Source: a virus
Taxonomy: Duplodnaviria; Heunggongvirae; Uroviricota; Caudoviricetes
Strand: one strand, 5' to 3'
Virus record (IMG/VR): IMGVR_UViG_3300046315_000035
DNA length: 13,862 bases
The position numbers and the translations under genes are program-made. The notes below the pieces were generated by a model. That model was not told the origin of the DNA. It did no database searches and was given only the letters and a program-made list of their open reading frames with translations. This document shows, piece by piece, positions 3,526 through 8,738 of this stretch; positions within the stretch are counted from its first letter, which is position 1, and every line of letters starts with the position of its first letter.

Positions 3526-4206
3526 TTATTTAGAATTATCTTCTTTAAGCAGTTGCTTAAGATTCTTAGCTTCAGCTTTTGCTCGTTTCTCTTGCATTTG
3601 ACTTCTGATCTCTAATCTGCGAACAATCTCTTCAGCGTCAAACCACATCTCTTTACCCATGATAACTTCTTCAAGTTCTTTATCGGTTAAGAAATCACGA
3701 TAGACACTGTGCATCAATACTCTAACTTGCTTATCTACGAATGAAGCATGAGAGATAACATCTGACTGCTTACCGAAAGCTCCAAACGTAGCAGAGTGAA
3801 CCATCATTGTAGCGTAAGGCGATACACTGATACTTGGTGCAGCTAGTGCAATAAGCGAAGCCGCTGATGCAGCTACACCGTCAATCTCAGCATGTACATC
3901 AGCATCTGTATTGTCAATAGCGTTAATAATTGCAATTGCACCATCAAGTTGACCACCGTAGCTATTAATCTTCATGAGCACAACATCGCCTTCACCTAAA
4001 GATTCAATACCTTGTAGGACTGTGCGATAATATTTAGCTTCTCTGATATTTTCATCCAAAGGAATCTTGATGCAGCGATTAGTCTTTGTGCTTTCAAAAT
4101 AAGGTAAATACTGCGGGTTACTTCTGATATTTACTTCACCCTCTTCATCATCGTCATCATTACGGGCTACTCTTGTAAAATTTTTATATTTACTTGTGTT
4201 TGGCAT
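3526..4206 (-). CDS. clpP: ClpP-like serine protease (peptidase S14 family)
   Basis: INSYGG, GVAASAAS (catalytic Ser) and MMVH (catalytic His) motifs, plus EMWFDAEE. AAGGAG RBS; 17-nt overlap with phoH. Confidence 0.85.
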   Translation of the reverse strand: MPNTSKYKNFTRVARNDDDDEEGEVNIRSNPQYLPYFESTKTNRCIKIPLDENIREAKYYRTVLQGIESLGEGDVVLMKINSYGGQLDGAIAIINAIDNTDADVHAEIDGVAASAASLIALAAPSISVSPYATMMVHSATFGAFGKQSDVISHASFVDKQVRVLMHSVYRDFLTDKELEEVIMGKEMWFDAEEIVRRLEIRSQMQEKRAKAEAKNLKQLLKEDNSK

Positions 4207-5442: not shown

Positions 5443-5677
5443 ATATAACATAGGTAATAACATTGGTTATTACAGCAGGTATACATAGGTTACAACATAC
5501 ATTAACCTTATATTTGTACTTATATAAGTATATCTAATAGTAACATCAGATGTTAACATTAAATGTACTTATAGTTTAATTGATTTATTAATAAGATATA
5601 TATAAACTAAAGATTAATATAGGTTATAACATAGGATAAACTTCAGTTGATACTTTAAGTTATAACCTATGTTATAT
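5443..5677. repeat. AT-rich region of nested direct and inverted repeats (ATAACATAGGT-type motif) and palindromes
   Basis: ATATAACATAGGT 5443-5455 is inverted at 5665-5677. ATAGGTTATAAC 5619-5630 is inverted at 5659-5670. Palindrome TACTTATATAAGTA at 5517-5530. Confidence 0.65.
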
Positions 5678-5964
5678 TCTATAATAGTCGTAGTGCTATT
5701 TTATTTTAAATTATCAATTCCTTATTTTTAGTTATTTCGTATAGACGCTCAAGGCGCTCTGCCTGTCCTACGGACGGTTAGCTGCACTAGTCACTGAAGC
5801 TGCTCAGTCAAAACCTTCAGCAAACCCCCTAGAAGCCTCTACAAGCTCTCAACTTCAGTTAGTCTAGGGCTTGGTAGCCTGAAGGTACGAAACGAGCGTA
5901 TAGAGCTTTTAAACAAATTGATAATTGTGCAAGAAGATTAGATGTCAACTTTAAGAAGGTAAGC

Positions 5965-6447
5965 ATGAAAATAAAAGAATTAATTGATTATGATTTGCTT
6001 GAAGGTAGTTTCTTTATTTTAAAGAATAACACTAGATACCGAAAGATATTTCCAAATGAAGAAGGTTATTTAGTATTTTATAAACAAAGTAAAAGAATAA
6101 AACTTAAAGCTAATAAAGTAGCAATTGAATTGGTGCAAAACATAATTGTGCAAAAAGATAAAGTAGTATTGCACAAAAACTTAAATGAAACAGATTATAG
6201 ATATTGCAATTTAAAATTAATATCCAAGAAAATATATAATACTATAAAAGAAGCTTATAGAAACTTGAATGGATATTTAAAACTGCAGCCTCATCCTAAA
6301 GATATGTTTTCATATGTACTTATCTGGAAAGAGAACGGCAAAGACAAAATATTAGTTGTGCAAGATGTAGTCGTTGCGAAACGAATGCTGAACAAGTTGC
6401 AGTTGAAGTACGCTAAAATCTTAAATAGGCACTGTATATTTGACTGA
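5965..6447 (+). CDS. Degenerate HNH (HNH_3-like) endonuclease-derived protein
   Basis: YD...G.F, GY, KANKVA and VLHKNLNETDYRYCNL align by eye to the HNH_3 pattern (AHRLA; IDHINGDRxDNRxxNL), with the DNR Asn replaced by Tyr. Confidence 0.55.
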   Translation: MKIKELIDYDLLEGSFFILKNNTRYRKIFPNEEGYLVFYKQSKRIKLKANKVAIELVQNIIVQKDKVVLHKNLNETDYRYCNLKLISKKIYNTIKEAYRNLNGYLKLQPHPKDMFSYVLIWKENGKDKILVVQDVVVAKRMLNKLQLKYAKILNRHCIFD

Positions 6448-6462
6448 TCCTTGATATTACGC

Positions 6463-6491
6463 TTGAAATTACCAATTTTATATGATATAAT
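6463..6491 (+). promoter_or_regulatory. Sigma70-type promoter with extended -10
   Basis: TTGAAA-N17-TATAAT with TGn. Confidence 0.8.
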
Positions 6492-6780
6492 CAAGCATCT
6501 ATGTAAATTAAACTTACAATCTTTAGTAAATCATGGTATTAAGCGCCACGACCCTGCGTAAGATACAACTTGGTTTAACCCTGCTAGATATAAACCTTTG
6601 TATGTTAGCCTATGTATCTTTAAACTCCTTTCAGTCATAGGTACTTCAGTACAAGCTGGATAAGTAACCAGCACTAATTTCGCTTCGCTAATTAGTCAAG
6701 CACTAACAACAAATCGTATCTCATTGTAGACAAATCTACAGTGTTTGTCCATAATGGTTAACAAAAAGAATAATACAACT

Positions 6781-6993
6781 ATGAACTGCATTACATGCAA
6801 TCGTTACTTTAAGCAAAACGCTTTCAACAAAACAGCAGAGTGTGAAGAATGCTTGGATGCTGCTTTTTTGAACTTAGATTCAGAAGTGCAAGTTGACTTT
6901 GAATTGCTTAAGAATCCTTCTGGTAAAACAATCCCTGTATTCTATGATGACGAGTACAACGATCCAGAAATAGATACAAGAGATTCTATTTAA
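6781..6993 (+). CDS. Small putative zinc-binding protein (CxxC...CxxC) with an acidic C-terminus
   Basis: CITC and CEEC motifs. The start is uncertain (6745 TTG, 6754 ATG or 6781 ATG). Confidence 0.7.
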   Translation: MNCITCNRYFKQNAFNKTAECEECLDAAFLNLDSEVQVDFELLKNPSGKTIPVFYDDEYNDPEIDTRDSI

Positions 6994-6997
6994 AGTA

Positions 6998-7026
6998 TTG
7001 ACAGAAGGTAAAACTGCTGTTACAAT
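6998..7026 (+). promoter_or_regulatory. Sigma70-type promoter for the tRNA cluster
   Basis: TTGACA-N17-TACAAT with TGn, 10 nt upstream of tRNA-Thr. Confidence 0.88.
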
Positions 7027-7036
7027 AGCTTTATTG

Positions 7037-7110
7037 GCTGGATTAGTTCAACGGTAGAACAGGGGTTTTGTAGTCCTCAGATGAGTGTTCGATTCATTCA
7101 TTCAGCACCA
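7037..7110 (+). tRNA. tRNA-Thr(UGU)
   Basis: Acceptor GCTGGAT/ATTCAGC, D stem GTTC/GAAC, anticodon loop TT-TGT-AG, T loop TTCGATT, encoded CCA. Confidence 0.9.
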
Positions 7111-7115
7111 AACAT

Positions 7116-7191
7116 GCTATCATCTTCTAATGGTTAGGAAAACGGGTTTTCATCCCGTCAATCGTGAGTTCGATTCTCCGTGATAGCTCCA
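7116..7191 (+). tRNA. tRNA-Glu(UUC)
   Basis: Acceptor GCTATCA/TGATAGC, anticodon stem ACGGG/CCCGT with loop TT-TTC-AT, T loop TTCGATT (one bulge in the T stem), encoded CCA. Confidence 0.88.
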
Positions 7192-7278
7192 GTAAACGTG
7201 TATTCCGCAACTACGTTAAAAGTTCGGCTGCTCAATCGCCAACGGAAAGAGCATAAGGTTACAGTTGGATAAATTTAT
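7192..7278 (+). ncRNA. Candidate structured spacer RNA between tRNA-Glu and tRNA-Asn
   Basis: Stems AACGTG/TACGTT, TGCTC/GAGCA and GTTCGGCTG/CAGTTGGAT; loop-loop complementarity TTCCG/CGGAA. Confidence 0.35.
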
Positions 7279-7357
7279 TCCGTAAAACCCGAGCTAGGCG
7301 CATGGGCGTGACTGTTAATCACTGGTTAGATTGGTTCGAATCCAATGTACGGAGCCA
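7279..7357 (+). tRNA. tRNA-Asn(GUU) with an atypical enlarged D arm
   Basis: Acceptor TCCGTA/TACGGA, anticodon loop CT-GTT-AA, T arm ATTGG-TTCGAAT-CCAAT, G73 and encoded CCA. Confidence 0.85.
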
Positions 7358-7360
7358 TTA

Positions 7361-7436
7361 CTGAGTGTAGCCTAGATAGTCAGGCACTTGATTTGGGGTC
7401 AAGATCACGGGTATGCGAGTTACTCCATTCAGACCA
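7361..7436 (+). tRNA. tRNA-Pro(UGG) with a non-canonical D/T elbow
   Basis: C1-G72, A73 and CCA; anticodon stem CTTGA/TCAAG with loop TT-TGG-GG; D loop AGATAGTC; T loop TGCGAGT. Confidence 0.85.
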
Positions 7437-7460
7437 ATTTAACGTCATCGAAGGATAGAC

Positions 7461-7865
7461 ATGATAGATAAAAAGAAAGAGCAACTTGGAATGAATCCAA
7501 GTACAGCAAGCGGTAGACTAGTAAAAGATATTTTATGGTCTTTTATTGTAAAAAATTGTCAAGATACTTGTTGCAAATGCGGTAATCAAATGACAAGAGA
7601 AACGTTTTCAATTGAACATTTAAAACCTTGGTTAGATAGTGATGATCCTGTTGGGTTGTATTTCAATCTAGACAATATCTCGTTTAGTCATCTATCTTGT
7701 AATATATCTGATGCTAGAAAACAAGAAGCTGTTTGTGGAACATACACCAGATATAAAAATCACTCGTGTCGCTGTGATCCGTGCAAATTAGCTGCGTCAG
7801 ATTTCAAAGCAAAGTATTATACAAAAGAGTCCAGACAAAAACAATATGTTAGAACTGGAAACTAA
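7461..7865 (+). CDS. HNH homing-type endonuclease inserted in the tRNA cluster
   Basis: CCKC...SIEHLKPW...NISFSHLSCN (HNH core with Zn ligands) and a C-terminal CGT..Y....CRC.PC Cys cluster. Confidence 0.8.
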   Translation: MIDKKKEQLGMNPSTASGRLVKDILWSFIVKNCQDTCCKCGNQMTRETFSIEHLKPWLDSDDPVGLYFNLDNISFSHLSCNISDARKQEAVCGTYTRYKNHSCRCDPCKLAASDFKAKYYTKESRQKQYVRTGN

Positions 7866-7869
7866 TTTA

Positions 7870-7954
7870 GGATGAGTATCCCTTTAAAGAGGAGGTGTGG
7901 CCTGTAAAGCCGCTGTCATTGACTCGCTAGGAGCGTTACCTAGATCATCCACCA
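7870..7954 (+). tRNA. tRNA-Tyr(GUA), long variable arm, non-canonical T loop
   Basis: Acceptor GGATGA/TCATCC, A73 and CCA; anticodon arm GTGGC-CTGTAAA-GCCGC; variable arm GTC-ATT-GAC; T arm CTAGG-AGCGTTA-CCTAG. Confidence 0.83.
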
Positions 7955-7959
7955 AACAT

Positions 7960-8289
7960 GACCTGAAATAACGGTCCGACAGGTGAAATGCCTGTACCTA
8001 ACACCAAAGAACCGTTCGAGAGGTAGCTTCGGCTATTACGGGAAGTAGCAGGGGATGCGCCCTACGCTATAAGTTAAAACGCATACCTTTATTTTAATAA
8101 AGGGTATAACTTACATTAAAGAACCTACCTTGGGTCCGAAGTCCCTTCGGTTTTAGGCGTCCCACGAATCTGTTGCGTGGTAACACGGAGTTTAGAAGCT
8201 TCGGGTGAGTATTGCCAAATGCTCATGCAAAGGATACAGCGTATTATCTGCGGTAGATACGAAAAGGCTACTCGGGAATCGTAACCCGA
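7960..8289 (+). ncRNA. Candidate ~330-nt structured non-coding RNA between tRNA-Tyr and terS
   Basis: No ORF of 60 aa or more; at least nine local hairpins including a C(UUCG)G tetraloop; nested long-range helices 8044-8049/8267-8272 and 8063-8068/8238-8243. Confidence 0.65.
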
Positions 8290-8310
8290 ACTAATTTATA
8301 AGGAAATAAT

Positions 8311-8655
8311 ATGACGTTCAAAAAAGGCGAAAGTGGTAATCTAAAAGGAAGACCCAAAAGCGTAAACTTACTTGAAAAGCCAACTAACCGTGAACTAAAA
8401 GAGCGTGAATTAGTAATGCTCTTACGTAAGATTAAACCTCACGTAGCTGAAGCTATTATGCAAGCTGCTGCGATTATGAAGAATGAAGAAGCTAGTCACC
8501 AAAACCAACTAAAAGCTGCAACTATCCTTTTGGATAACTATCGCAGACTAACTCTTGATATGTATGATGGTGAAGAACAAGCCGAAGAAGCTGGTGTAGA
8601 AGTACAGCAAAATAATGCTCCAATTTTCAGCTTGAAGGTTGTAAACGAAGAATAA
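8311..8655 (+). CDS. Putative terminase small subunit
   Basis: N-terminal FKKGESGNLKGRPK motif (DUF5681-like, common in TerS), a helical body, an AAGGA RBS, and its position upstream of terL. Confidence 0.7.
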   Translation: MTFKKGESGNLKGRPKSVNLLEKPTNRELKERELVMLLRKIKPHVAEAIMQAAAIMKNEEASHQNQLKAATILLDNYRRLTLDMYDGEEQAEEAGVEVQQNNAPIFSLKVVNEE

Positions 8656-8665
8656 TTTTATGCAA

Positions 8666-8738
8666 CAGCTAGGTTGGCCCACCGAAAAGACGATTACTCA
8701 CCGTCCTGCTGCTTGTCTATTCAGTGAGATCGTTGGAG
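8666..8738 (+). promoter_or_regulatory. Structured RNA leader (three-way junction plus pseudoknot or alternative helix) abutting the HNH RBS
   Basis: Helices CAGC-T-AG/CT-GCTG, TTGG/CCGA and GACG/CGTC; loop CTCAC (8697-8701) complements GTGAG (8724-8728); the RBS GGAG is at 8735-8738. Confidence 0.5.

Follow-up and report, generated by a model that had tools for sequence, protein, structure and literature searches.

The window considered here is a 13,862-nt stretch of DNA from a freshwater phage (Caudoviricetes; IMG/VR record IMGVR_UViG_3300046315_000035), and the subject is a 330-nt interval within it (7960-8289) lying between a phage tRNA cluster and the putative small terminase gene (terS). 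The local gene order is tRNA cluster, HNH gene, tRNA-Tyr, RNA interval, and a DUF5681 gene in the terS position; a second nuclease gene (HNH/EndoVII) lies 3' of the latter, and terL and the portal gene 3' of that. No open reading frame (ORF) runs through the interval, and its G+C content is 46%, vs. 35% for the window. The closest cultured phage is Limnohabitans phage DC31 (TerL 92.8%), whose published description makes no mention of non-coding RNA, and when the region and three of its homologues were compared with cultured phages by BLAST, only DC31 and Curvibacter phage P26059A matched. The original prediction took the interval for a single ornate molecule of 330 nt, with long-range helices closing it. 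Its outline holds, in that this is a conserved, structured, uncatalogued phage RNA on the + strand, 3' of the tRNA cluster and in a putative operon with terS, but the single molecule is contradicted by comparison of related loci. The interval consists instead of successive RNA modules that fold on their own (A; B; and C, with domains I, II, and III; Table 1), four of whose elements are predicted to be H-type-like pseudoknots.

Related loci were fetched through terS, and 54 distinct ones carrying the 3' block, C, were compared. The modules are gained and lost independently. There is no upstream block at all in 28 of these loci, all or part of B is present in 21, and A in five; relatives show C alone, A + C, B + C, or B and C 1.6 kb apart, the last in L004-L006, where ORFs separate them. 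Apart from the window, a single contig, nearly identical to it, has the exact string of A, B, and C with the AU-rich hairpin, and in DC31 module C begins one base after the tRNA-Tyr CCA. Two more small, probably pseudoknotted elements (~30 and ~55 nt) fill the slot directly 5' of C in some loci (L014, L018, L024, L029, L107, L110, L116; L010).

All of the sequence words on which the single-molecule description was built are where it placed them: the 5-nt spacer at 7955-7959 after the CCA at 7952-7954 (found also at 7111-7115), the TGAAAT loops of the two opening hairpins (7964-7969 and 7984-7989), and the words at 8024-8035, 8044-8049/8267-8272, 8063-8068/8238-8243, 8136-8150, 8162-8180, 8206-8225, 8245-8249/8255-8259, and 8272-8289. 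Covariation backs the local helices among them (8136-8150, 8162-8180, 8206-8225, and 8272-8289) and not the two long-range ones. Both of the latter are perfect in the window, one of them appears in the minimum-energy fold, and B stands directly 5' of C in unrelated phages too, all of which would suit a single RNA; yet among the 17 loci with both partners 8044-8049/8267-8272 is fully paired in five and 8063-8068/8238-8243 in eight, with no compensatory change in either. Partners are absent or 1.6 kb apart (one is missing in most relatives), changes on the C side are never matched on the B side, and the helix bases are shared with the covarying P7, PK2, PK3, and B2. Helix 8245-8249/8255-8259 and the outer part of the 8070-8113 arm were not confirmed either, and their bases likewise serve other, covarying helices. 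Folded alone, the 330 nt are borderline (z -1.9, with six of 100 shuffles equally good). The idea of a single RNA of 330 nt with long-range closing helices deserves hardly any credence.

The structure of module C was evaluated on 42 aligned copies, in which 91.9% of cells are paired and 36 of the 44 pairs show two-sided changes; none of 500 shuffles scored as high, and slid controls gave 35-41%. On a tree of 51 copies, compensatory events numbered seven in P2, five in P3, 14 in P4, 18 in P5, 28 in P6, 10 in P7, and 13 in P8, against a background in which just six of 15,719 unrelated column pairs had three events at 85% pairing. G.U combinations outnumber A.C by 108 to 8 in the helices, an excess that indicates a + strand RNA under selection. 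Three pseudoknots are predicted within C. PK1 has four compensatory events. PK3, between the P4 loop (8170-8173) and 8236-8239, is 4 bp or longer in all but three of the 51 copies, with 11 events; its own partner fits in 87.5% vs. 21.5% crossed, the register having been picked for each sequence, for which the crossed control allows. In PK2 (8240-8244 with the P7 loop) a 3-bp core is paired in all 51 copies, and in unrelated phages four different complementary triplets occupy it, in 19 of 19 copies. Pairing of the P7 loop with the first CGU (8158-8160) instead of the second (8240-8242) was also considered and rejected, being broken in L137 and absent in short forms.

The conserved unpaired words of module C are CCUU(A/G) at the end of the P1 loop (50 of 51 copies, these having been found through terS), GCCA in the P6 loop (51 of 51), and a 5-nt tail. 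The P1 loop has no covarying partner within the RNA. Just 5' of terS, L142, L143, L007, and L035 have a second copy or tandem repeats of the terminal hairpin and its tail, which suggests that they may be a binding or processing site by themselves.

Module C extends beyond this family of loci. A C model matched, outside its training set, P26059A (107 bits) and a copy in the tRNA array of the unrelated L079 (40 bits); it found no match in one Otagovirus and one Pakpunavirus genome. In DC31 and five larger records there is one copy per genome. A domain I pattern identified 69 further stretches, mostly in unrelated phages of up to 354 kb, which reuse the domains in various combinations: I + II (seven distinct copies with the GCCA hairpin and six minimal ones between tRNAs), I + III (19), and I + II + III (seven), with eight unclassified. 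These combinations occur in unrelated phages with and without B. Their 3' neighbors include hsp20, an RF-1-domain gene, a capsid-like gene, nuclease genes, terS, and tRNAs, and several copies (L183, L187, L200, L203, L209, and L079) have tRNAs on both sides and no ORF to control. The only double occurrence found is in one contig, L186, where C is present at full length and again in the short form of the tRNA arrays (3552-3741 and 4091-4146). A 320-kb record (G006, that of L164) has a C core together with a bS21 gene; as a companion of C this gene was uninformative, being present in one of five carrier records.

Module B is also more variable than its form in the window. B1 occurs in other phages in a short form without the UUCG insert. 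The B2 loop pairing shows compensatory change, and several different pseudoknots occupy the same slot, with a mean pseudoknot score of 10.3 vs. 6.2 in shuffles. In large phages without nearby tRNAs, domain I is directly preceded by the B1 hairpin in its short form together with an H-type pseudoknot whose sequence varies, with a late-promoter-like word upstream of B + C in three of the four cases counted. B and C are thus regular neighbors that fold separately; a B-C transcript of ~280 nt is plausible, which saves part of the original prediction.

Outside the family, module A (49 nt) was found in L049, a G+C-rich phage where it lies 5' of a DUF5681 gene, and in the tRNA array of L079. Pattern scans of viral, metagenome, and bacterial collections gave these three lineages only, the other matches being attributed to chance, mostly in coding DNA. 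Both UGAAA loops are invariant over the three lineages, and the stems differ with pairing mostly kept. Against the T-loop pattern (a 5-nt U-N-N-R-A on a Watson-Crick pair, then one to three extruded bases), the sequence of hairpin 2 fits, with two extruded bases; hairpin 1 has four. The leader, previously read as a tRNA spacer marking a processed 5' end at G7960, is also conserved in unrelated phages. The spacer is present, but it is weak evidence for processing: it belongs to the module A motif, since it also stands 5' of module A in two unrelated phages with no tRNA directly upstream. The L079 array (5500-8600, - strand) combines module A, a C core, many tRNAs, and two weak YrlA-like matches, with an ORF that resembles Ro60/TROVE by eye.

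Table 1. Coordinates of the RNA modules and neighboring features in the window.
Feature	Position	Strand	Remarks
Sigma70-type promoter-like site (11/12)	6998-7026	+	Just 5' of tRNA-Thr; putative start of tRNA-RNA-terS transcript
HNH gene	7461-7865
Atypical tRNA-Tyr(GTA)	7870-7954	+	CCA-ending, last of cluster; from sequence and ARAGORN-called orthologues in relatives
Module A (optional)	7955-8003	+	Conserved 5' leader and two hairpins; 5/54 related loci and two unrelated phages
Module A stems	7960-7963/7973-7976; 7979-7983/7991-7995		Loops each opening UGAAA (T-loop-like)
Module B	8011-8084	+	Hairpin plus pseudoknot; 21/54 loci, whole or part
B1 hairpin	8011-8044	+	8012-8015/8038-8041, with inserted UUCG hairpin 8023-8036
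B2 H-type pseudoknot (predicted)	8045-8084	+	Stem 8045-8053/8060-8070; loop 8055-8059 with 8080-8084; A-rich linker
AU-rich hairpin (optional)	8085-8105	+	4 loci only
Module C	8123-8294	+	~175 nt; domains I-III
Domain I (family core)	8123-8161	+	P1 8123-8125/8133-8135; P2 8136-8139/8147-8150; PK1, P2 loop 8141-8146 with 8156-8161
Domain II	8162-8239	+	P4 8162-8166/8176-8180; P5 8186-8190/8199-8203; P6 8206-8213/8218-8225; PK3 8170-8173/8236-8239
Domain III	8240-8294	+	PK2 8240-8244/8257-8261; P7 8253-8256/8268-8271; terminal hairpin P8 8272-8289; conserved 5-nt tail
Putative small terminase gene (DUF5681)	8311-8655	+	Function inferred from position and domain

The tRNAs, the RNA interval, and terS are probably co-transcribed, because a sigma70-type site precedes the first tRNA and no comparable promoter-like site lies between it and terS. 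ARAGORN and Rfam both miss the window copy of tRNA-Tyr. A second conserved non-coding RNA (6498-6672, + strand), with invariant words, starts at a promoter-like site at 6463-6491; its 3' hairpin is of the same kind as that of module C, it is kept in DC31, P26059A, L014, L107, and L157, and it has no Rfam match. There are exactly two C-type terminal hairpins in each of the window, the DC31 genome, and the examined part of P26059A (shuffle mean 0.9). Directly 5' of the HNH/EndoVII gene is an int-alpA-like RNA (8662-8729, + strand) scoring 33.3 bits against a cut-off of 35.8 (51.5 bits in L024); such elements accompany nuclease genes of this type in L012 and L015 as well. Some relatives have group I introns 3' of terS (L033:3428-3636, L150:1260-1461, and L156:1972-2183).

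Rfam scans of the window and of some 40 homologous loci found nothing on the modules, with no match at E<=10 over the interval, while the same scans did detect group I introns elsewhere in related loci. The exclusion of tmRNA, RNase P RNA, and group I introns in the original prediction is borne out: ARAGORN and Rfam are negative for tmRNA in the window and no reading frame passes through the interval, and neither the interval nor its homologues have an Rfam match to RNase P RNA, group I introns, or known self-cleaving ribozymes. Resemblances seen by eye to pistol or to SAM-II/V gave no model match, and the key residues are unconserved; a likeness of the P8 loop to 16S rRNA 1492-1501 or a T loop was rejected because its central part is constant neither in length nor in sequence. 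No description of this RNA was found in the literature, with overlap with the candidates in a catalogue of phage RNAs (Fremin 2023) not compared. What appears to be new is the modular architecture, together with module A, the third pseudoknot, and the repeated association of B with C.

Several phage RNAs are nevertheless similar in one respect or another. T4 RNAC and RNAD (species 1 and 2) are stable RNAs of unknown role from the phage tRNA region (PMC3014915). They are likewise small non-tRNA RNAs in such a region, as about half of the C family copies are, but they are proven transcripts, whereas the putative RNAs described here form a modular, pseudoknot-rich family that also occurs away from tRNAs; nothing points to homology, which was not directly compared. 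The manA RNA (Rfam RF01745; PMC2864571) is similar in length (~170-190 nt), in its occurrence in aquatic phages, and in its positions before ibpA/hsp20 genes and beside tRNAs. Identity with manA was rejected: five records searched at E<=10 gave no match (the RF01745 cut-off is 55.2 bits), the published sequences lack the P1 loop and PK1 words (first three alignment rows, by eye), and the order of helices differs. GOLLD and ROOL (PMC12286853) are phage RNAs too, and resemble this family in lying close to tRNA islands and in having multiple pseudoknots and domains that vary, but they are several times longer; the modules here are 49-175 nt, without an Rfam match or long-range closing helices.

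The reading favored here, for which the chances seem about even, is that the modules are a stable, nuclease-resistant phage RNA that presents the domain I loop to an outside partner, and that its function is independent of the neighboring gene. Placed at the RNA-rich start of the phage's late operon, the modules would be co-transcribed with the tRNAs from 6998-7026, and host RNases would cut them out or trim them at A/U-rich spacers, as for tRNAs; stacked pseudoknots and the 3' hairpin would then let them persist by resisting nucleases. Function would be carried by domain I, the sole constant part, with its conserved CCUU(A/G) loop shown to the partner, for which a host or phage RNA-binding protein, a nuclease, or a ribosome component can be guessed. 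B, II, and III would be interchangeable stabilizing domains and A a separate small passenger RNA, the whole acting as a stable decoy or scaffold in late infection whatever gene is adjacent. In its favor are the covarying structures on the + strand, the separate gain and loss of modules, the domain combinations in unrelated phages, the copies flanked by tRNAs and the variety of 3' genes, the single copy per genome in DC31 and the five larger records, the lack of a covarying partner for the P1 loop inside the RNA, and the precedent of T4 RNAC and RNAD. Several observations weigh against this. Of the 51 family copies of C, 47 lie no more than 100 nt from terS and only 24 within 200 nt of a tRNA, as would fit a leader. 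Since the P1 loop and the PK1 strand were part of the domain I pattern, finding them invariant in the wider set is no evidence. Pairing in PK1 is only 63-100%, with a mismatch in the window copy; PK2 shows a single compensatory event inside the family; and module A comes from three lineages. Expression, processing, and partner binding of the modules are put forward here as a proposal.

The main rival, rather unlikely in our estimation though a serious contender, is that C (along with B where there is one) is a cis-acting leader of late mRNA, whose pseudoknots would guard the terS-terL-portal or hsp20 message from 5'-end-dependent decay after tRNA processing, or tune its translation. C ends 17-25 nt 5' of the terS start in most copies and stays with terS even when 1.6 kb of ORFs part it from the tRNAs, and in the tRNA-free P26059A; the B + C of large phages follow a late-promoter-like word and precede hsp20, and the P8-type hairpin occurs just twice per genome, each time before a gene. 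However, short members sit between two tRNAs without an ORF, and the downstream genes are unrelated. Nor is the P1 loop enriched in complementarity to the next ribosome-binding site (16 of 34 vs. 48 of 100 in the background), and there is no covarying alternative terminator or switch helix. Formation of cages has been reported for manA (10.64898/2026.07.01.735769) and for ROOL and GOLLD (PMC12286853), and by analogy with these RNAs in vitro the modules might form protein-free multimers, some of the loop pairings being between copies. Size and genomic slots (tRNA arrays, hsp20 leader) like those of manA, and several exposed conserved loops, could be taken that way. It is an improbable reading, since a closed cage is hardly compatible with such free loss of domains, and manA itself gives no match; inspection of the sequences also indicates that the linkers of all four pseudoknots would allow ordinary intramolecular folding.

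Self-cleavage and packaging fare worse. Compact pseudoknots directly after a tRNA CCA (1 nt away in DC31) recall the theta ribozymes reported beside gut-phage tRNAs (PMC10879173), and one module could by analogy be a ribozyme that frees a tRNA 3' or mRNA 5' end; with no Rfam match, helices in tandem rather than in the nested HDV layout, and many copies lacking an upstream tRNA, this is very unlikely. A packaging-motor RNA like phi29 pRNA had also been suggested. C (~175 nt) is similar to pRNA in length and stands beside terS-terL-portal in this phage family, and a terminase lies ~1-2.5 kb upstream of two other full-length copies. There is no Rfam match here, though, and the distribution of C is independent of terminase type. 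In other phages most of the homologues lack a neighboring terminase; homologues are found within tRNA arrays and upstream of hsp20 and capsid genes. Two Pseudomonas phages whose TerL is of the same type (Otagovirus and Pakpunavirus; TerL 45-47% identical) give no match. No RNA requirement is known for two-subunit terminase motors, and a packaging role has very little to recommend it.

A more specific version of an RNA with an outside partner is a long shot. The P1 loop letters match the last letters of the anti-Shine-Dalgarno tail of 16S rRNA. Domain I could be a widespread phage mimic of the 16S rRNA 3' tail on a nuclease-proof pseudoknot scaffold that accepts plug-in domains, titrating a host factor or a defense nuclease that acts at the anti-Shine-Dalgarno end, and A could be a two-T-loop RNA that binds tRNA elbows; tRNA binding by A is speculation. 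The likeness to the tail is five letters, and only a lead. There is a partial parallel in OLE RNA, whose P6 is an anti-Shine-Dalgarno mimic bound by bS21 (PMC12054373). Both are non-coding RNAs that appear to display letters of the 16S rRNA 3' tail, but OLE mimics the paired Shine-Dalgarno/anti-Shine-Dalgarno helix, and the P1 loop consists of five unpaired letters resembling the tail. If true, the 16S-mimic and T-loop reading would mean that phages exchange and reshuffle a common set of RNA domains much as they do protein domains.

Whichever reading is correct, the family is found in phages from about 75 kb to 354 kb, and the natural swapping of its domains points to the 40-nt core as the functional part. 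It is present in two cultured phages, DC31 and P26059A. Phage tRNA regions have long been known for stable RNAs without a known job, and this family is a compact one, supported by covariation.
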